Virus record (IMG/VR): IMGVR_UViG_3300025674_000024
Coordinates: 1 to 64,000 of that record
From: a virus
Reading direction: 5' to 3' (one strand)
Length of the DNA stretch: 64,000 nt
The first letter of the stretch is position 1. Every line of letters begins with the position of its first letter. Both the position numbers and the translations under genes were made by a program. This document shows, one piece after another, positions 5,906-56,703 of this stretch. The notes beneath the pieces were generated by a model, which was not told the DNA's origin, made no database searches, and saw only the letters and a program-made list of their open reading frames with translations.

Positions 5906-8900
5906 GATCCGAAGAGAGCGGGTTTGATAGAGAAGTTCCTTACTGACACGGAGCCGCTATCGCTCCAGATCCTAAACTCGAGGGGGTAGCCGTCCGTGCG
6001 AGGAGTAGCGGCCCTTGTGATCGACTCTATGCGGGTCCCGGAGTTGGACGTGAGTACCATCGTGAGTTCGTAGGATGTCTCGGTCACGAATATCTCCCCG
6101 GATACCATGACGACCTCCCCGTCCGTGGAGCTGATCGGGGCGGCTGACGTGCTATTTGCCCCGTCGAAGGCGGTGAAATAGTGGTTAGCGGCGCCGACCA
6201 TCACGAGTTTGCCCTCGAAGAGGATCTTATCCGCTCCGTACGTATACGCGGGCAGAGCGGGAAAGTTGCAGGTGCGCCACGTGTCGTTAACGACTGTGGA
6301 CGTCACGCTCTCCGCGGCGGTCACTCGGAAGCACTCGAACCACAGGTCTCCTTCACCGAACCGAGAGTTCCCCTTGAGGTTGATGCTCACGTTATCCGGA
6401 TCGACAAAGTAAGACGTGATGCAGTTGCTCAGGATGCCGTCTGGCACCTTGTTCTTACTACCGGAGCTTTTCTGACCGAGAATCACTCGGCCGTTAGCTC
6501 TCACATTGGTGATGGTGGCATTTGGCCAGTACTCCGATGGCATGTAAGCGGCAATCGCAGCGGTCGTGACGTTGGTGTCTCCTCTGCACGAGACGTTCTC
6601 TACGTAATAGTCCATCATCACGGCCTGGGGGCTAATAAGGCTGTTGACCTGTGCAAGCACGACATACCTCATCTCCTCCACGTCAAAGTGAAAGTTGGTG
6701 AAGCGGAAGTTACCAGAGGACTCTTCTTTAGTAGTTCTTAAGACAATGCCTTCATCGATCGACTTAGCTCTGATGTAGATGTTATCGAATGTGATATCTG
6801 CTTCGGTTGTAGCTTGTCCGCTTACCCCATTCGGAAACTCCGCTCCCGGGGCAAACACGGAGATGTTTCGGAAAGTAAGACCCTTGGACCCCTCTCCCCA
6901 GTCAATGATCGGCTCACTGGGCTGTTGCGGGATTCTAGTTCCTCTTTTCGGAGGAGGGATGCGCAAGAAAAACATATTCTCGAACACGCTGTCTACCGAC
7001 CCGGTCTTCCACTCCATAAACCCGTTCGCGCAGGCCAGAGTGCAGTTGCGCATCGAGAGCCGGTTAACCGCGTTGGAGTTCGTACGACCGGGAGACTCTA
7101 GGTAGCAGTTGTAAACCTCGATCTCGTAGCACCCGCTAAAGTTTATGGCCGTCGAATCGCTGTTGCTGATGATAGAAACGTCTCTTATCGAGGATTTCAT
7201 CACCCAGGTGTCAGCTGGACTGGATCCGTTTGTGTAATCGTTGGGCTTAGCAACCTCGACTCCGACGAAGGAGTAGTTAAGCGGATGCTCTAGGTAGAGC
7301 CTCCCTGTGGTCGAATCTACTTCCAAGACGTTAACAATCTCTGCAAAGTCCGGGTTATCACCACTCGGAGTATAACTCGATTGACTCTTTATGAGACGGA
7401 GGCCGGTGCCGATGTAAGAGGCGTCCGCGGGGTTTGTCATCGTGATGAAAAAGTCCCCACGATTTACGTCATTGGCGGCTTTATACACTCTCACCAGATA
7501 TCTTCCTCTACTTAACCCGGTCCCAAAACTGCCCGGAGTCCAAACGTTTGAAACGTTCACGATTTGAGAGCTCCTGCCAGTCCCAAAGTAGGACGTGTGG
7601 GAAACATACAGGGTTAAAGAAGAAATACCGTAAGTTCCCGCTGGGATAAACACCCCGGTCTTCTTCCCTTCGGTTTCGTACCTTTTTAAAGCGTAAGCGC
7701 CGGCGGCATTGATAGCGGGGGCGTTATCCGACCCGAAAGCAAACTTAACGTTTGTCTCAGAGTAAGTCGGTGTGCCTTGGAGTCGGACCTCGGTGGAGCT
7801 GTTAACCCCAGTGATGCGGCTGTTAAAGAAACCATAGTCGTCAACCCCCTGGATCACCACACTCTTTCCGGCATCCGCCGAAGAAAAGATCGGCTCTGAG
7901 CACCTTAAGATTTTTGATCCCCCGACCGTCTCTCCGTCGTAGCGAATCTGCGCGTCAGCGACCGCCCCAAAGTCGTCGATGCTGACATACTCCTCAAACT
8001 TATCATTAACAGAGACCGGTACCGAGCCCGGAGCCATGGTTCCAAACAACGGATAAGGGGCCACCGCGGCCGCGTCAGTGACAATGCCCGGATCGTACTC
8101 CAACTTGTTAGAATCTACCGCCGCTCCGGCGGGGATCTTAGAGTCCGTAACGGCTCCGTCTGCGAGCTTCGCGGTCGTTACGGCATCATCTGCGAGCTTC
8201 GCGGTCGTTACGGCATCATCTGCGAGCTTCGCGGTCGTTACGGCATCATCTGCGAGCTTCGCGGTCGTTACGGCATCATCTGCGAGCTTCGCAGTCGTTA
8301 CAGCCCCATCAGCAAGCTTTGCGGTCGTTATCGACCCGTCCGGGATGGCTGCGACGCTGAAGGGAGAATAGATAAGCACCACAATAACGTCCCCGGCGGT
8401 GAGAGCCGCTAGGCTGGAGAACGTTGTGCCGTTTGTCCCCGCATAGTCCGCCCCCCTTTCGAGAAGCACGCCGTTGAGATACAACTGCTCGAGTCCGGGC
8501 GTGTACGCGAGTTGCTGCCCCGAGTCGTCTGGGCCGGACAGGGACGTCTCTCCGCCAGTCGCCGTCTTCGTCCACCTCAGGAGGGAGACGTTGGAACCGC
8601 CGCCACTTCCGCTGCCGGCATCGATCCAGGAGGCCCCGTCGTAGATCTTGAGCACTGGCGGGGCGACCGACTTGTCGAGCCACATCTCCCCAACGGTGTT
8701 TCCAGTCAGCCCGGTAGCTGAGGCGTTGGGGGGAGAACCGTCCGCGGTGATCGCAGCGGGGCCTACTTTCACCAGAGAGCCGTCCGCGGCTTTGAAGAAG
8801 AGTCCAGGTTCCGTGGAGTTCAGGTTGAGAGCGGGCTGGCCCTCGAGAAGATTGTTCGGGAAGGGGCGCTCCTGGGCGTTCGTGGAGCGGAGGAGCTGGA

Positions 8901-41266: not shown

Positions 41267-44200
41267 TTAGGCTTGTCCGTACAGCACTGGCCCCTTGCAT
41301 AAGGGAATTTCGTCGCTATGGAATAGATAACGAGACCTCGTGATGAACGGGACCTCTACGAGCTTGGCGGGAGACGGCGTGACAATTCCTTCGAAGTCTT
41401 GTGTCAAGATCTCAAAGCCGCCCTCCGTGGTGATAGACTCATTAGAGATCTCAGGCTTGCAAATGACCTTCTCGCGGTGACAGAAGAATTTCGCCGGGTC
41501 GAACACCGGGTCGTCCGCCGCCGAAAGATCGGCGACAAAGTAAGCGTAGGAGACTGTGTAGTTTGTGAACGAGGCTTCGTCCGGATCGTCTGGAAATTCG
41601 ATATTCGGGATGATTAGAGACGGAGCATCATTGACTTGGGGTTCCGTAGAGTCGTTAGGACGGAGTCGGAACGTCTCAACGTCAGTGTCGAGGAAGCCGG
41701 TGAGTCTCTCTCCGCGGTCACTGAACTTAAAGTAAGAGCCTGGGCGAGTGCCGTCGGGATTGAGCTTTCTCTCCTGGTACCCGTCGTAATCCAGCACAGC
41801 CGACAGAGTGAGTGGGGAAGAAGAATCAGGAGCCTCAAATGAGAGCACTGCATCCTCGAACCCATCCTGTAGGAATGTATCGGACTTTTCCGTCGTGGAG
41901 ATAAGGAAGTCCTCCACGTAGAAAGTCGCATAGTCGTCAAAGTCTTGCGGAGGCTCGTCGTACACCTCGTCGTAGAGGAGTGGGAGGACGTCCGTGACTG
42001 GCAGATTGGTATAAGAAGGCGGAAGCAAGCGCGAGAAGTAGGCTTGGTTAGCCATGACACTCTCGGCGCGGTTCCAGAACTTCCCGTTCCGCTGGTAGTC
42101 CACCGGCAGACGAACGTGCTGGCGATACGATGCCACATCGTCTGGGCCGGTGTTCTCGTCCGCGATGAGCGGATTGACAAAAGCATTATCCAGCCCGGGA
42201 TCGGAGACGTTGAGCACTCGGTTCTTCCAGATCCTGAGCGGATGCAGAGAGTGAGTCACCGACGGGCGCATGCGCCAAGCCGGAGCGGAGAAGATGAGCT
42301 GGTCGAGACGAACTCTGATCGGCTCCACCGGGCACGGAAAGACTTCCGGATTGCCTGGGTCAAAGCATGGTTCGCAGAAGGGATCTATTTCCTTATCGTA
42401 ATAGCCACTGTCCTTGTCTTCGGTGGGGAGCGGTGTGGTTTCGATGCGGCCATTGTCGAGAGTGCAAGCAACCTCGATGGGATCCGGGCTGTCGCCAGAG
42501 ACACACGGGATGCAGTTTAGTGGCTCTGTGATCGGAATGAGAATGGCTGGGTCTACCGCAATGCTATCATCACCCTCAGTCGTTATCTCTAGCAAAGACT
42601 CCGTAGTAAGCTCAATGAGCACTGTGACTGCACCCGTGGAGAAAAACCCGTCATCAATTGGGGGTTCTGAGTAGGGAGTGCTAGATATAAAGGTGCTATT
42701 GTCTTGGACAACACAGTCAATTGGGGGAAGAGATCCTCCGGCAAAAGACCCGTTGTTGTAAGCGATGCAAATAAGGCCTGGAGGTTGGACTAAGTCGTAC
42801 TCTGAATTGTCATAAAGAGTGCAAGTGTCAATTATGCCTCCATAGATAAGGACGGCGTCTTTTCCTGGGTCTGCGCCGTACACGTATTCCCCACCGTCAA
42901 GAGTTCCGCACTCCGCTCCGCACTCCGTATTGCTCAGGGGCGGTCGGAGAGGATTGATGCCGGGTTGGTACAATCCTCCATCAACAAATTCACAGTTAGG
43001 CGGGATGCTGCTCTCGTAATCGCAGTTGGGTACTACAATCTCGTCAAACACCCCGTCATCAAACGAGAGGAAACCGTCGATCACCCCTCCGCTAACACAG
43101 TCGAGATCGGTCTGTCCTACGAAAGCGCGAGATCCTACTAACCTATCGTACTCTCCGTCGTCCGTACCCATCCAGGCGGCTTCAGCGGGGATCGGGAAGT
43201 AGGTGGAATTGTCGAGTGATGGGTCAAAGATCCACTCTACGCACGGGAAACGAGTCTCGCCGTAAGTCGTCTTAGCTTCGTACTCAAAGGACAGTTCTGA
43301 TAGCTCGAGTCCGTCAAAAGCGATAGTATCCCCGTCATACCCGTCAGCATCAGTCCCTGACGCCGCGATGAGGATCTCGTTCCCAACTCCCGCGTCCGTG
43401 TACAGAGTCGCTCCCGCTTCTCCCGCTACGTCTACGACGAGATCATCGAAGTCAATGGTCCTCTCGTAATCCTCAGGGAGGCCATCACAGACGGAGAAAG
43501 GATCTCGATCGTACAGACCGTCTCCTACCGAGTTGGTGAAGATGATTGGGAAGTCGTAGTCTCCACCGTCTAGGTAGAACTGCCCAAGGATCGAAGGGTA
43601 CTCGCCGTTGTCGATGAAGCAGGTCGGTGGGAATAGAAATTGAACGCCGTTGCACCCGATCGGGATACTCGTCTCTGGTCCCGGATCGGTCGCTATCTCG
43701 TTCGGTTCGGAATCAAAGTACTGCCTCAGAGTGAGGACATAGTTCGGTGTCTCGCATACTCCGAACTCTGCGTCGGGCGGCTCGTAACACTCGCTGAGGT
43801 CCATCGAGCGGTCATCGATGGTAATCGCATCATCCCTCTCAGTAAAGAGCTCGGCTCTGCCCTGGTTGAATATCCCGACGTCCTCGATCGTTGATGTAGC
43901 CGTGCTCGGGTAGTCTCCGTTGTCTAGGAAGTCTACGGGAGGGTTGGTGATCAGCGCCTCGAAAGTTCCGTTGTCCGTGATCGTCGTAGACTCTTCGGGC
44001 CCGTCAGTCTCGAGTCCAAGGCCTACAAAGACTTCCGTGGTGCACGGACCGTCATCGATGGACAGCTCCTGCCCGTTCTCTAAGAGAAGCTGCTCAAGAT
44101 TCTGAGTCTCCAGGCGAATGATCTTCGTTTCCAGAGAGACTGTGGGTTGGTACAGCTCGTCACAGTCCTCTACCTTAAAGTTGTAGTGATCGGTAAGATA

Positions 44201-50814: not shown

Positions 50815-53090
50815 TCAAGCGAACACGTCGTTGATATAGAAGCCAGAACCGAAACCGCCAGTGGAGCCCATGCCAGTGATGTTCACGGCACGCTCTACGG
50901 TGATCTCAGCACGGACCACGCGACGCTCACGGATGTAGTACTCAGGACGAACGGCGGGAGTGCCGGTCAGCTGGTAGGTGTAAGCGAATGCGGGAGTCGC
51001 GGCGTTGGCACCACCTGCGGGCATCACGGAATCGGAAGCGCTTAGCGGGCTGTAGAACAGCAGCACGGCGTTTTCGGGGAACACCGGAGTCAGAGTGCCG
51101 TCATCGGCGAGACGACGACCTTCAGCCACGCGGATACCGCGCTCGAGACCGAAGTAACGTGCGAGCACGTCCACGTCTATCGAGTCGGCGGTCGTGAACT
51201 GAATGCGATCCAGAATCGCGGCGTTGGTCAGCAGGCTGTCGAACACAGCGGTGCCGATTACGGCGCCATTGGGACGAATACCGATCTGATTGGATACGGC
51301 ACGCTTCCAGTTGAGAACGTCGGAGATGGGGTTGTTGCCAGCTGCACCCCAGCTAGCACCACCGGAGGAGATGCCGATCGTGGTGGCGTTAGCATCGTAG
51401 GTGGTCCAGTTAGCGTAACCGAGTCCCAGGGTACCACCGGCGACAATGTTGCCGGCTTCGTAGTTACCTGTGGTGCTCACCGCATTGGACACGGTCACCT
51501 CGTAGCTGTTCATGAGGCGGGACATCGCGTTGCGTGTCTCAATGGCGCGCAGGTCGACTTGAGCAGGGCCCTCACCGGCGTTCTCGATCACTTCCTCGGG
51601 AAGTTCCCAAGCGATCACTTCTTGCTCGAGAGCGTAAGCGTCGGTGTCGAAGCGGCTTTGAACGGCGGGGATGTTGGTGCCGTAGGCGCGACGGTAGTCG
51701 GAGATAGCGAAGGCTTCCTTGCCGAAGCGCAGGATTTTACCGGCGCGGGTGGGGGTGTCCACCACAGGGGCAATGAAGTTTGCGATGCTGGTCTCGGGCA
51801 GCATGAAGCCCTGAGCCAGGGTTGTGAGAATAGGCAGTATGTTATCGTAAAAGAGTTTAGCTTTTACTTCTTACGGTTTTCATTCCCGTAAGTTCAGACT
51901 ATATCATCATCCCTTGAATACGCCTTTAATCCATCCATCTCCAGGACATTCTTTACTCCTGGTTCTCTCTACGATACCGTCTTCTGCAATTCGGTACCAG
52001 CGAGTTTTTCCTTTAGACATCTTGCCACCTTTAGCGGCAAAATATTTTCCTTGGGGCCCTCTACCTCTTTCCCAGCCGTCACCCGGACAGGAATGAGATC
52101 TTGTAACTTGATCCTCTTTATGCCACCATAGCATTTTGCCAGTAGCTAGTCCGCCCTTTCGAGAGTTTTCTCGGGCGGTCGGATCATTCTCCATCAGAGC
52201 CTTCATAAACTTAGAATTAAGTTTCTTATGCTCTTCAGAAATAGTTTTGTTCTTGTGGGCTTTCCCTATGTTTTTTCTCCATTCTTCAGAGAAATTTCTC
52301 CCTAAGTTTGTTTTTAGACCGTCTAAACATTTTGTTCGTAGGTCTAAGTATTCTTGAGGAGAAAGTTCTCGTCCGTCTAGATGAGACATAAACCAGTAGG
52401 CTTGCTTAAGTTTGACTTCTTCTGGGAAAGCGTCTATAAGCAGCTTATGCGCTTGTAGGTGCTCTATTGGAGTAAGCCAAACTAAGTTTGAAGTATCGTC
52501 AGAACCGCCAAGACATCTTGAAATGATGTGATGAAGTTCGTGATACCCCTCTGGTTTTTCTTTGCGATAAAGGAAAGATGAAATGAATTCTGTGTACTCA
52601 GGGGAGCTGGGCGCTCGTGGGAAGGTTATTGTTGGGTCACTCACTTCCTAGTCGTTGAACCTTTTTATCTCAATCTATTTTACAAATAGACACCCGAGAT
52701 AAACTTGGCTGCTGATTCCCATTTCAGGGTTCCAGCAATTCACCCAGTTCTCGCATCCTTCTTACGAAAGAGCGGGACCGTTTTCACAATCGACACCACC
52801 GTAGGTGTCACGAAGCAAATGTGTTATCGTAAGAGAGTTTAGCTCTTACTTCTTACGGTTACTGTTCCCGTAAGTTCAGACTATATCATCATCCCGATCG
52901 TCTTTGCAGTTGATCGGGAGCCGGGCGCTCTTGGGTGGAGTTATTGTTGGGACTCATCCACCTAGTCGTTGAACGTTCCACAGAACCTAAGCCCTCTGTG
53001 GCTTCGCTGCTGATTCTCCTTTCAGAGTTCCAGCAATTCACCCGGTGTTCGACGCGGATCACTCCACGAAGGAACCTATCGATTCATCAT
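50815..53090 (-). CDS. Major capsid protein, spliced: join(53090..53082, 52815..52789, 51834..50815), 351 aa
   Basis: Spliced N-terminus MMN-LRDTYGGVD-PILTTLAQGFMLPETSIANF restores a VDP.LT.LA.G[FY] capsid-type motif in frame; AAGGAG SD at 53102-53107. Confidence 0.9.
51835..52788 (-). mobile_element. Group I intron 2 (954 nt) containing HNH ORF
   Basis: 5' splice site after U, P1 GAU|UGU-GAAA-ACGGUC; P GAAUUGCUGGAA, Q AAUCAGCAG, R GUUCAACGACUAG, S GAUAUAGUCUGA; terminal G. Confidence 0.93.
51907..52644 (-). CDS. Intron-encoded HNH homing endonuclease with NUMOD3-like motifs
   Basis: HELHHIISRCLGGSDDTSNLVWLTPIEHLQAHKLL; FSEEWRKNIG; CPGDGW repeats. Confidence 0.9.
   Translation of the reverse strand: MSDPTITFPRAPSSPEYTEFISSFLYRKEKPEGYHELHHIISRCLGGSDDTSNLVWLTPIEHLQAHKLLIDAFPEEVKLKQAYWFMSHLDGRELSPQEYLDLRTKCLDGLKTNLGRNFSEEWRKNIGKAHKNKTISEEHKKLNSKFMKALMENDPTARENSRKGGLATGKMLWWHKEDQVTRSHSCPGDGWERGRGPQGKYFAAKGGKMSKGKTRWYRIAEDGIVERTRSKECPGDGWIKGVFKG
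52816..53081 (-). mobile_element. Group I intron 1 (266 nt, no endonuclease)
   Basis: AAU| splice site pairing with GUUC; same P/Q/R/S elements as intron 2; terminal G. Confidence 0.92.
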
Positions 53091-53172
53091 TGACTTTAAG
53101 TCTCCTTCTGCAGAAGATATAGTTTGTCCCTGGACTTACACCAACCCCAAGAGGTTAGATGCCAGGGTGAAA

Positions 53173-53619
53173 TTAGCTGAAGCTGACGAGCACGTAATCC
53201 TCACCGCCTTGGGTGAGAACTTCGCGGATGATCGGGGTTGTGCCGTTGACAGTCACAGCGGCGCCGGCAGCGTTAGTCACTGCCTGACCGTTGGCGTTCA
53301 CCTCGAGAGCGGTACCGATGTCAGCGGCCACGGGCACGTTAGCACCGGCCTCGGCGGAAATTAGCAGCAGACCGGAGGTAGCCACGGTCAGCATGCGAGT
53401 CTCGTCGGTTGCGAAACCGGTCGCGGGAACGTTGTCGTTCATCGTGAACTGTGCCACGCCCACGGATTCGCCGCCGTTGGACTGTTGAACGAGCAGGGGT
53501 ACGGTGCCGGGAGCCGCGGTCAGTTCGACCACACGGAATTCATTAACGGCGGTGCCTTGAGCGACCTGGAAACTTTCTGCAAATCTTACATACTGACGCC
53601 CATAAACAGGTGCAGCCAT
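53173..53619 (-). CDS. Capsid decoration/cement protein (DUF2190-like)
   Basis: Between scaffold and capsid genes; SVGVAQF, LEVNANGQAV; GGGTAAAA at 53687-53694. Confidence 0.7.
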   Translation of the reverse strand: MAAPVYGRQYVRFAESFQVAQGTAVNEFRVVELTAAPGTVPLLVQQSNGGESVGVAQFTMNDNVPATGFATDETRMLTVATSGLLLISAEAGANVPVAADIGTALEVNANGQAVTNAAGAAVTVNGTTPIIREVLTQGGEDYVLVSFS

Positions 53620-53722: not shown

Positions 53723-54643
53723 CTACCTATACTTGATCACACACCGGCAGCGGTCATGGCACCTACACCCCACTCCTGGCATAGGGAGAGATCCGATTGG
53801 CACCCAGCCGAGAGAGTCGTAGTATTTGCAGTCCTCACACACTCTCCTATCGTGCTTTGAGCTGCGCCGCATCTCTTTGAATCCCTCGGTTCTCTTCTTG
53901 GAAGACTCCCCTGTGACGAACCATCTCCAGAGAGGAGTGACTAAGAATCTCTTAAGACGAGCGCCGAGTCCATTCCAGGTAGCGGGGCCTCTCTGCCTTT
54001 GCCTCGGTTTGGATTCCTTTTGAGCTTTCTCAGCCTGAGTGTCGGTCTCAGCGGTAGGACTAATCTTACGGCCTTTGCCCTCTTTCTGAGTGTCTTTAAC
54101 TGTAGTCTTAGCCGCTCGAATTGCCGCTTTGGTAGCTCGAGCCCCTGTGAGGGGGATGACAAGAGATGTGGGAGCAGAGACTACCGGAGCTTCGAGATTT
54201 CTTTCATCTTGGGACACAGTGAGGGGTTGGTCTTCTCCCGGGACAGGATAGTACCAATCATCATCCTCCTCCTCCTGGTAATTCTCCTCATCTGAGAGAC
54301 GGTCATTATCCAGGGAAAGCTTGATGTCGTCAAAGAAGTTCCAGAGGTACTTCATCTGACCCATCGTCTCGGAGTAGAGAGTCTGTGGGATCTTTGTCTC
54401 TCCCAGTCCTAGCATCACAGCTGCAACTGATGAGATAAGAGTATCCTCTGCAGAAGCCCTCTGGAACTCTGAGAAAGTGATCTTATTGGCTTTGAGCTTT
54501 CTTGTGAGGGCCTCAGCTCGGCCTTCCATCTCCGCCTCTAGGCCCTCAAGAGAGGTGAAGGATTCAGCTAAGCGCTGGGCACGGTCGATGTAACTCTCCC
54601 GGCGCTTAGCCGCCTGACCAATAAAGGACAGAAGCTCCATCAC
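53723..54643 (-). CDS. Minor head protein, MuF-like
   Basis: C-terminal RVCEDC...GW...LPMPG..CRCHDRCRC. Confidence 0.7.
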   Translation of the reverse strand: MMELLSFIGQAAKRRESYIDRAQRLAESFTSLEGLEAEMEGRAEALTRKLKANKITFSEFQRASAEDTLISSVAAVMLGLGETKIPQTLYSETMGQMKYLWNFFDDIKLSLDNDRLSDEENYQEEEDDDWYYPVPGEDQPLTVSQDERNLEAPVVSAPTSLVIPLTGARATKAAIRAAKTTVKDTQKEGKGRKISPTAETDTQAEKAQKESKPRQRQRGPATWNGLGARLKRFLVTPLWRWFVTGESSKKRTEGFKEMRRSSKHDRRVCEDCKYYDSLGWVPIGSLPMPGVGCRCHDRCRCVIKYR

Positions 54644-56703
54644 TCAGCGGTGAAAAGAACGCGCTTAAGAGCCTCCGTGTAATCGATCTCTTCTTCGCGG
54701 GAGATCTTCAGCGCTTTTTCGTGGGGATCAAGATCCTCCTCTCTCACCACAGACTCGCCACCTGCAACTTCCTCGAAGCAAACCTGGGAAGGAAGGTTTT
54801 CTAGGATACGCATCAAAGGGGTAGCGGCGGTCTCGCCTTCCGAAAACTCGAGAGTACCAAGCTCCAAACCCTCCATGTAGTCTACAAGGTCCTCAGCAGC
54901 CACTACAGCCTCGGTCAGCCTACCCGTCTCGTAGAGACCTTCGGCAAACTGCTCGAGTTGCATGCGGTGAGCCTTACGCTCAGAAAACTCCGCTTCAGAT
55001 TTGAGCTTAGCGTTAGCGGCTTCGAGTTCCTCGAGGCGTGCCATCATCTCCTCAATCTTGGAAACGGGAGCTTCCTCGGAGTGGTTCACGTACATCACGC
55101 GAACACCCTTGCCTTTTGCTTGCTTGCCTGTGCCGCCGCCATTAGCGAGATCTAAGTACTTATCAGGGTAGCCCTTCATCTCAGGGGCTTTGCCGGTCTT
55201 CTTACGGTCTTTCTCCATCTTAGAGGACTTACCGGTCTCGCCGTCGTAACCGTCGACTTCCTCGTCGGTTCCCTTCTCGTCGCCTTCGAAGCCCTTGATC
55301 TCGGGAGCAGTTCCCTTCTTACCGCGGCCAGTTTCGCCTTCGGGACCAGCTTTTCCAACTTCGCCGCGACCGCTCTGATCGTTGTTGGGATCGAGGGCCT
55401 TGCGACCCTTCATACCGTCCTTGCCACGCTTAGGCTCAGAAGTCTTGTCGACGTACTTGTTGTCGTCGGTCTCAGCATAGCCGAGATTGATACCCTTGGA
55501 CGGAGACTTAGTGCGCACAAGACCACCGGGGCCATCCTCTTCGGGAGTCACGCCAGTGTCAGACGAAGCCACGCTGTCCATGCCACGCTTCTTCTTGCTA
55601 GGCTCAAAGGTGGGGTCCATGTACATCTCTTCATCCTCTTCCTCCATAGCCTCGCCATTTTTAGGCTGCTTTTTCACCTTGGAGGCGACGGGACCCTCTC
55701 CGTCAGCTTCTTCAGACTCCATGCCGGACATACCCTTGGGAGCGGGAGCCTTGAGGCCCTTTACCTTGCCGTCATGCTCAGCGGTGGCTTCACCGTGCTC
55801 CTCAGAATCAGACTCCTCGTAGGACATGCCCTTCTTCTTGGAGCCGCATGAACCGTAGTCCATGTCCTTCTCTTTCATAGCCTCGTCCATGGACTTACCA
55901 CTGGCCTCAGCTTTCTTTTTGGCGGCTTGCTTCTTAAGAGCGTCGGGTAGATCTTTACCTTCCATCTCCTTGGACATCACGGAGTCATCGTCCTCCTTTT
56001 CTTCGGAGTCGCCCTCCTCGCCCATCTTTTCGCCCTTGACTTTCTTGGGCTTTTTCATACCCATCATCTCACCTTCGGCGAATTCGCCTTCGATGGTTTC
56101 TTCTTTAACTTCGGCGGGAGCTTCGAGTTGCTGCTCCATCACCTCTTCCTGAGTGTTCATCTCAGCGCGAGCCTCATTGAGTTTTTCTTTAAGGAGTTCA
56201 AGAGGTCCCATGTCCTTCTTGAGTGTAGGTCCGAGTTCCGGATCGAACACGGCGTCTGGAGTAAGAGTTGTGGCGAAATCTACGATCCCGTCATCACTCT
56301 CCTCGTAAGCGAAGCCTTTAAGCCCTTTCACAGCCGGAGGTTGGGCCCCCAGCAGAGCGACGTGGCGCAGTGACCACTTACCCGGCTCTGGGTTGATCTT
56401 GGACTCGGGAGAATAGAAGGATGCGCTCACCTTCTTATAGAGTCCGTTCTGAATGTAATCCTTAGCTAAGGGAGAGAAGTCAATCTCAGCAAAGAGTTTG
56501 TCACCCTTAACTTTGACGTCCCGAACCCATCCCCATGAGGGAACTTTGTCATTGTCCTCGTGGCCAATCCGAATCGGAGCCTCGTGAACACTAGGATTAT
56601 AGGAGGAAGCGATCTCAGAGAGGTCTTTCTTTGTAAACTCTCTTGTCACCCCTTGCGCCGAGGTCTGGGTCCCGGCTTTAAAGATGTGTACTTCTTTGAT
56701 CAT
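54640..56703 (-). CDS. Prohead protease/scaffold (Mu gpI-like) with long charged linker
   Basis: IFKAG, APIRIGH, WGWV, YKKVSASFY, LRHVALLGAQPPAVKGL; GGGTAAAA at 56734-56741. Confidence 0.9.
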   Translation of the reverse strand: MIKEVHIFKAGTQTSAQGVTREFTKKDLSEIASSYNPSVHEAPIRIGHEDNDKVPSWGWVRDVKVKGDKLFAEIDFSPLAKDYIQNGLYKKVSASFYSPESKINPEPGKWSLRHVALLGAQPPAVKGLKGFAYEESDDGIVDFATTLTPDAVFDPELGPTLKKDMGPLELLKEKLNEARAEMNTQEEVMEQQLEAPAEVKEETIEGEFAEGEMMGMKKPKKVKGEKMGEEGDSEEKEDDDSVMSKEMEGKDLPDALKKQAAKKKAEASGKSMDEAMKEKDMDYGSCGSKKKGMSYEESDSEEHGEATAEHDGKVKGLKAPAPKGMSGMESEEADGEGPVASKVKKQPKNGEAMEEEDEEMYMDPTFEPSKKKRGMDSVASSDTGVTPEEDGPGGLVRTKSPSKGINLGYAETDDNKYVDKTSEPKRGKDGMKGRKALDPNNDQSGRGEVGKAGPEGETGRGKKGTAPEIKGFEGDEKGTDEEVDGYDGETGKSSKMEKDRKKTGKAPEMKGYPDKYLDLANGGGTGKQAKGKGVRVMYVNHSEEAPVSKIEEMMARLEELEAANAKLKSEAEFSERKAHRMQLEQFAEGLYETGRLTEAVVAAEDLVDYMEGLELGTLEFSEGETAATPLMRILENLPSQVCFEEVAGGESVVREEDLDPHEKALKISREEEIDYTEALKRVLFTAE

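Follow-up and report, generated by a model that had tools for sequence, protein, structure and literature searches.

Evidence for two related group I introns spliced from the first 12 codons of a cyanophage-like major capsid gene

How does a phage make its major capsid protein from a gene whose reading frame closes after four codons? The question is raised by the minus strand of a stretch of 64,000 nucleotides (nt), hereafter the window, which covers positions 1 to 64,000 of the IMG/VR record IMGVR_UViG_3300025674_000024. The full record spans 85.7 kilobases (kb) and belongs to an uncultured, cyanophage-like virus related to Synechococcus phage S-CBWM1. We hold it to be very probable that two related mobile group I introns, here called A and B, interrupt the major capsid gene within its first 12 codons, are spliced out, and have presumably spread by homing. 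This answer draws on the anatomy of the gene, a covariance-model match, helices maintained by compensatory changes, exact junctions in DNA and RNA, and presence/absence polymorphism among related loci.

An interrupted capsid gene and its joined transcripts

The capsid gene consists of three exons (Table 1). Read without splicing, its frame encodes MMNR and then meets an in-frame UAG at 53078-53076 in intron A; with only intron A removed, it runs into a UAA at 52764-52762, nine codons into intron B. Both stops had been noticed in a first-pass annotation made from the sequence alone, and its coordinates and lengths for the two introns and the exon between them proved correct to the base, including the minus-strand arithmetic. 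Its "9-nt exon" has to be amended, as exon 1 is made up of 9 coding nt plus the 5' untranslated region. The full protein of 351 amino acids (aa) would come from doubly spliced mRNA only, with translation of unspliced RNA stopping after 4 codons and of half-spliced RNA after 20. As the annotation also foresaw, automated calling of open reading frames (ORFs) misses the first 22 aa: the program-made list gives a 329-aa capsid ORF from M23, against homologues of 351 aa. The context GAAGGAGA..ATGATGAAY around the start codon recurs in those intron-bearing relatives for which the upstream sequence was examined.

Judging by family score and gene neighbourhood, the exon 3 product is a lambda gpE-type (HK97-fold) major capsid protein. 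It scores 34.4 bits against Pfam PF03864 Phage_cap_E (gathering score 22.9) and matches the PHROG 1005 major head protein (E 6e-50), while the gene is 66.7% identical at the nucleotide level to the annotated major capsid gene of S-CBWM1 and sits between a head maturation protease gene upstream and a tail tube gene downstream.

Intronless homologues reveal where the exons should be joined. Searching with the capsid protein returned 287 relatives, the closest of which are 84-96% identical and 348-352 aa long. These closest homologues (P0001-P0009) begin MMNLRDTYGGVDPILTTLAQGFMLPETS, which is letter for letter the in-frame N-terminus predicted for the joined exons, and the S-CBWM1 capsid protein begins MMNLNETFVGVEPILTT. 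Among 80 related IMG/VR loci, 73 have no interruption in their DNA. Intronless relatives start MMNLRDTYGGVDPILTT, and the alleles of L006-L012 and L014 read ATGATGAATCTTCGTGACACCTACGGTGGTGTCGAT followed directly by CCT, identical to the three exons of the window once joined; their matching DNA is likewise identical to exon 2. The comparison with intronless homologues that the annotation had proposed thus came out in its favor. The boundaries of intron B are unique, and that of intron A is ambiguous by 1 nt (a C stands on both sides), an ambiguity that is resolved because group I introns end in a terminal G.

The same joints occur in RNA. We used three metatranscriptome runs of 2017 (three study codes, possibly one campaign), which contain 82-85% of the region's words, and two DNA runs, which contain 95-97%. 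In each of the three RNA runs there are contigs with 51834 joined directly to 52789, a jump of exactly 954 nt (depths 107.7, 19.4, and 11.6), and contigs with 52814/5 joined to 53081/2, a jump of exactly 266 nt (depths 48.4, 11.4, and 11.6); that two splicing events make the capsid mRNA, as originally suggested, is therefore borne out by metatranscriptome contigs carrying both junctions. One contig of 1003 nt (X5 record 24) is spliced at both sites, running through 51133-51834, 52789-52814, and 53081-53200, and it departs from the window only at 51324 (A>C), a change common to every run, including DNA. In RNA run X3 the exons reach depths of ~98-110, intron B 11.6, and intron A 0-9. In DNA run X1, by comparison, contigs (records 5-7) read through both introns and overlap all four boundaries at a depth of 15-18, with exons at 11.7, and no intron-A-less joint was found among that run's contigs. 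These contigs record precise excision and exon ligation in RNA, subject to the caveat that they are assemblies and that DNA may have been carried over. A joint of exon 1 to exon 3, as expected from exon skipping, is not listed among the RNA contigs, which drop rare forms. The doubly spliced product would contain the peptide MMNLRDTYGGVD, allowing for trimming by the prohead protease. At position 51324 itself, the plus strand of the window has A but all four runs (RNA and DNA) read C; either the strains differ or the record contains a wrong base.

Table 1. Features of the capsid locus, in window coordinates
Feature	Position	Strand	Details
Shine-Dalgarno-like AAGGAG	53102..53107	-	11 nt 5' of the capsid start codon; from sequence reading
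Exon 1, coding part	53082..53090	-	ATGATGAAT = ATG ATG AAT (MMN); last U would form the U.G pair of P1
Intron A (group I, ORF-less)	52816..53081	-	266 nt; starts CGATAG, ends ATTTG
Intron A 3' domain	52822..52895	-	J8/7, P7 3' strand, P9, P9.1; 92% identical to the intron B copy
Exon 2	52789..52815	-	CTTCGTGACACCTACGGTGGTGTCGAT; 27 nt, encodes LRDTYGGVD; present in the doubly spliced RNA contig
Intron B (group I)	51835..52788	-	954 nt; starts TGTGAAAA, ends ATACTG; HNH ORF looped out of P8
Putative HNH homing endonuclease gene	51907..52644	-	245 aa; GTG start in P7.1 hairpin, stop in J8/7
Intron B 3' domain	51840..51913	-	Partner of the 74-nt repeat (blastn, 74 nt, 91.9%)
Exon 3	50815..51834	-	339 remaining codons and stop; starts CCT ATT CTC; stop codon 50817-50815

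Group I structure and a putative intron-borne endonuclease

Having located the junctions, we asked what kind of element they enclose. The Rfam group I model RF00028, with a gathering score of 50 bits, matches intron A at 53108-52852 with 60.3 bits (E 8.5e-13). Its alignment of intron B places an insertion of ~700 nt in the P8 loop, and beyond the two introns the RF00028 scan gave no further group I match across the whole 85.7-kb record. As the first-pass annotation had stated, each intron is preceded by a U and has G as its last base (AAU-C...UUG-C and GAU-U...CUG-C, hyphens marking the boundaries), and the U.G pair that it placed in P1 can be drawn in each. In intron A, GAAU-C pairs with GGUUC, forming the hairpin GAAUC/GAUA/GGUUC in the minimum-free-energy fold with the splice-site U opposite G; in intron B, a short, hand-drawn P1 pairs GAU-UG with CGGUC. 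A third insertion site of the same gene in other loci, site C, has a strong P1 of CUCCCU with GGGGAG, also drawn by hand. The guide sequence differs between sites A, B, and C, and each fits its own exon.

Each intron would accordingly be expected to fold as a group I ribozyme, in which the last exon bases, ending in U, pair with an internal guide (P1), the core spans P3-P9, and the last intron base is G. Two transesterifications would then release each intron from the late mRNA, and we infer that the reaction is autocatalytic (self-splicing dependent on guanosine triphosphate). An extra 6-bp (base-pair) hairpin, P7.1, separates P7 (GACUAG) from P3' (GAGCGCCC) in each intron, reading GGUGGA/UCCACC in intron A and GGAAG/CUUCC in intron B. 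Subgroup IA introns have a hairpin at this place, and the two introns may belong there.

Conservation of pairing was assessed in seven introns of the capsid gene, from three sites and different contigs, by folding each helix segment between conserved anchors. We relied on these per-helix folds because MAFFT left P1, P2, P6, and P8 of the ORF-bearing introns out of register. P2, P3, P5, P6, P7.1, P8, P9, and P9.1 stay paired with compensatory changes, and P4 and P7 are invariant. The variants are CGUGGA/UCCGCG, CGUGGA/UCCACG, CGGAGA/UCUCCG, and CGCGGA/UCCGCG in P2; CCGGGUG/CGCCCGG, CUGGGUG/CGCCCAG, and UCGGGUG/UGCCCGA in P3; the two forms given above in P7.1; and CUUACGG/CCGUAAG and CUCACAA/UUGUGAG in P9. 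P8 takes the form of four unrelated stems, all fully paired, and P9.1 occurs in five variants. The cores of introns A and B are just ~70% alike outside the 74-nt repeat formed by their 3' domains, a disparity that suggests gene conversion between the neighbouring introns. Joints that skip 982 nt or go back by as much (51882/52865; 31 shared letters) were considered as RNA products and rejected; we read them as assembly crossings, which arise in short-read contigs because the repeat links the two introns. Nor is there support for a proposed sequestration of the Shine-Dalgarno sequence by the UUCCUU/guide region of the intron, drawn from the cmscan alignment and a centroid fold, since the 73-nt fold (z -0.48) was no better than shuffles.

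The annotation's HNH gene in intron B was confirmed as an ORF matching the phage homing-endonuclease family PHROG 655 (E 2.7e-33), and it also matches PHROG 12434 HNH (E 1.1e-9). The motif stretch HHII..C..G..D..N.....EH..AH is visible in its protein, and we assign the ORF to the HNH family on this motif and the family match. The homologous ORF of locus L015 begins with an ATG aligned to the GTG start in the window. HNH proteins of the three sites are homologous and diverged, with identities of 43% (B/C), 31% (A/B), and 33% (A/C). A sequence search of the PDB found no homing endonuclease, giving McrA/Cas8-HNH entries at E >= 0.1 and a weak match of the C-terminal repeat to designed beta-trefoils. 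The putative endonuclease would presumably cut intronless capsid alleles of co-infecting phages, whereupon repair would copy intron B in. The window's intron A would have lost its own endonuclease gene; HNH-bearing forms of intron A are known in close relatives.

Elsewhere in the window, an sR55 match at 43020-43081 (E 0.66) was weak and dismissed as chance. Upstream of the capsid gene, the minus-strand region 53723-56703 encodes a 687-aa head maturation protease (PHROG 976, E 4.9e-74) whose long tail is acidic and rich in Lys/Glu, a protein of 306 aa (PHROG 24776) that is Cys-rich at its C-terminus, and a third protein, of 148 aa, without a family match.

Alternative explanations

Several observations weigh against our interpretation. 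The RF00028 match of intron B (52804-51870, 48.5 bits, E 2.9e-9) falls 1.5 bits under the gathering score, so that the model scan proposed by the annotation is clear for intron A and borderline for intron B; the matches are far beyond chance. The P1 helices of introns A and B have just 5 base pairs, with 3-4 exon bases, and were drawn by hand, while cmscan drew different, implausible P1 pairings. The Pfam HNH score of the endonuclease ORF (19.6 bits) is below the cut-off of 21.4. The RNA evidence was read from assembled contigs in place of raw reads, an RNA library may contain DNA, and alleles with one intron or none occur naturally as DNA. One contig of X1 (DNA?) skips intron B at a depth of 5.6 (vs 18); the 30-letter side of its joint (51834 to 52789) nonetheless covers 3 nt at the end of intron A, which hints at a DNA variant with intron A only in the same sample. 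In X4 and X5, contigs of intron B are as deep as about half to most of the exon depth. One rival reading is that the introns are real DNA insertions but that the "spliced" contigs are DNA of intron-less sister strains, with one intron, such as the ORF-less A, perhaps dead to splicing; the alleles with one intron or none, the X1 contig, and the possible DNA in RNA libraries speak for it. We consider this very unlikely. The doubly joined contig fits the window's own strain, its one differing letter in 1003 nt being present in the DNA run as well; the joined form in X3 is ~9x deeper than the intron-containing form, whereas the intron-containing form dominates X1, where the A-less joint is absent; the helices of both introns are all intact, with compensatory changes; and a dead intron in the sole capsid gene would be lethal. 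Overall, the contig pattern is far more easily explained by splicing than by contaminating intronless strains.

Splicing would be unneeded if the capsid were made from the 329-aa ORF starting at M23 (51804) and the upstream pieces were remnants. That ORF does exist and has an ATG start, but M23 lies 31 nt past the end of intron B with no Shine-Dalgarno sequence before it, and the 22 upstream codons are kept, and highly conserved, in all 73 uninterrupted homologues. As the window's exon pieces are identical to uninterrupted alleles and spliced RNA contigs exist, we find this explanation scarcely credible. It is more improbable still that mis-assembly at a repeat stitched the introns into the capsid gene, to the point that we regard the possibility as practically negligible. 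The 92% identical 74-nt repeat does produce 982-nt skip and go-back joints in short contigs, but the same intron junctions are found in independent contigs (intron B in L004 and L005; intron A in L015, L020, L022, L093, and L204), L206 shows A, exon 2, and B in succession, and DNA contigs of X1 overlap every boundary. We therefore retain two spliced group I introns as the explanation of this locus.

Population states and known systems

The interrupted gene of the window belongs to a wider population picture. A single intron family occupies three sites within 66 nt of the capsid gene: A after codon 3 (between AAT and CTT), B after codon 12 (between GAT and CCT), and C after codon 25 (between CCT and GAG). 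Alongside the intron-free loci, intron A occurs alone and ORF-less in L020 and L093, with an intact HNH gene in L015 and L076, and with a frameshifted HNH gene in the divergent, S-CBWM1-like capsid gene of L204. L004 and L005 have B only, L022 has A and C, and the window has its ORF-less A together with B. In L206, an independent metagenome contig of the Joint Genome Institute (JGI) that is 96% identical to the window, B is accompanied by an intron A with its own HNH gene. The site-A intron of L204 lies at 6311-7214 of the reverse complement (locus reverse strand), and the split in its HNH ORF marks the homing endonuclease gene as decaying.

Sequence identity is higher in the introns than in their host genes, a pattern that points to homing. 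Intron A of the window shares 95.9% identity with that of L022, compared with 81.9% for exon 3 and 66% for upstream DNA; between the window and L005, the values are 97.4% for intron B, 92.8% for exon 3, and 84.6% upstream. Intron B is 100% identical to that of L004, a locus that precisely lacks intron A yet agrees with the window at 99.7-100% in the flanking DNA on both sides, in intron B, and in exon 3. L004 represents either a very recent gain or loss of intron A or, if its sample is a metatranscriptome, half-spliced RNA. The presence/absence polymorphism, combined with intact, broken, and absent endonuclease genes, resembles a classic homing cycle, and we infer homing as the route of spread.

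Why should three sites lie so close together? It is possible, though on balance we think it unlikely, that the first 78 nt of the capsid gene form an intron-homing hotspot, in which a single lineage with three HNH endonucleases (31-43% identical) uses sites 27 and 39 nt apart, so close that the introns would interact. Under such a scenario, the endonuclease of intron B would carry the ORF-less intron A along by co-conversion, and each insertion would destroy or shield the target site of its neighbour. The 5' splice site lies 9 nt past the AUG, inside what would be the footprint of the initiating ribosome, which may clash with P1; splicing and initiation would then be mutually exclusive, so that splicing would gate capsid synthesis. 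Co-conversion, target shielding, and the ribosome-P1 clash are plausible effects of this closeness. The idea that the introns target the most conserved DNA was tried and rejected: in the 73 intronless genes the first 80 nt score an ordinary 0.80-0.84 per 30-nt window, with a maximum of 0.92 near nt 976 of the gene, and third-position conservation is 0.60 there versus 0.598 elsewhere. Conservation thus provides no explanation for a hotspot.

Similar cores are also present in other viral sequences. At least 118 stretches of IMG/VR viral contigs (loci L084-L201) contain the P3/P4 core motif GGGTGAATTGCTGGAAC, so many phage genes may be similarly mis-called. Two or more intron-like cores lie within a few kb of each other in L145, L116, L166, L106, and L200, suggesting that tandem introns may be common in other phage genes. 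Stretches of 64-77 nt that are ~80% identical to the intron cores were found in unannotated regions of Staphylococcus phages PMBT8, PT1-1, and PT94 and of Acinetobacter phage vB_AbaM_ME3, and these are probably unannotated group I introns.

For annotation, the immediate consequence is that gene callers leave 22 residues off the capsid protein and would not detect the introns. More broadly, one gene in one phage lineage displays every stage of the homing cycle, from the empty site to intact, broken, and absent endonuclease genes; the same gene also shows introns in tandem and, in RNA sampled in situ, evidence of splicing at both sites. It may serve as a natural system for studying competition or cooperation between adjacent homing elements, and the way in which a ribozyme deals with a splice site that falls within the ribosome-binding window of the late gene with the highest expression.

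The claim that this arrangement is unusual held for the crowding of the introns and their position at the gene start, but not for the class of gene. A group I intron with a homing endonuclease interrupts the major capsid gene of LittleE, a mycobacteriophage of Cluster J (PMC3706429), and a capsid intron of lactococcal phage Tuc2009 is cited in the same paper. Since both were already known, the novelty lies in crowding and position. In LittleE, as here, the most highly expressed virion gene is interrupted, a U closes the exon and a G the intron, an endonuclease ORF lies inside, the intron is found in some close relatives only, and a related ORF-less intron exists elsewhere (in the BAKA tail gene). 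LittleE, however, has one intron, where the window has two, 27 nt apart, and its LAGLIDADG-like ORF runs on the opposite strand, where that of the window is of HNH type, on the same strand, and looped out of P8. The 5' splice site 9 nt past the start codon and the population's three sites within 66 nt further set the present gene apart. Other structural-gene cases include late genes of phage JCL1032, as cited in PMC6669764, and the terminase gene of phage CB7 (PMC7344957), each with group I introns.

Several related introns in one phage protein gene, with multiple ribozyme reactions per mRNA, are known from Staphylococcus phage Twort, whose orf142 contains three group I introns and shows exon skipping (Landthaler and Shub, 1999, as cited in PMC6669764). 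As far as that citation goes, Twort differs in its host gene and phage lineage, and in its skipped exon, for which no corresponding joint is listed among the RNA contigs here. Among cyanophages, S-PM2 and S-CBWM1 are cited as carrying group I introns in psbA, and the free-standing F-CphI as targeting a psbA intron site (cited in PMC8557907 and PMC3984707). These cases share with ours the combination of group I introns and homing endonucleases in cyanophages, and S-CBWM1, with its psbA intron, is the nearest cultured relative of the capsid gene; in contrast, their target is a photosystem gene, and the S-CBWM1 capsid gene is uninterrupted. Our literature search, whose coverage was incomplete, found no intron in a cyanophage capsid gene and no 27-nt exon between two phage introns.

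The well-studied introns of T4 td, nrdB, and sunY and of the SPO1/Bastille type encode HNH (I-HmuI, I-BasI) or GIY-YIG endonucleases and typically have early in-frame stops after the upstream exon (reviewed in PMC3984707). Our introns are like them in their IA-like extra hairpin after P7, an endonuclease ORF in a peripheral loop, their apparent spread by homing, and such an early stop. They differ in that the former interrupt genes of DNA metabolism, and the window's HNH protein is not placed in the I-HmuI family by the PDB sequence search. Micro-exons between self-splicing introns have a parallel in organelles, for example in placozoan cox1 (PMC5436844), where very short exons flanked by catalytic introns are correctly spliced, albeit in mitochondrial genes of eukaryotes. 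Set beside these systems, the mechanism proposed for the window is ordinary, and what is new is the arrangement of the introns and the population picture around them.

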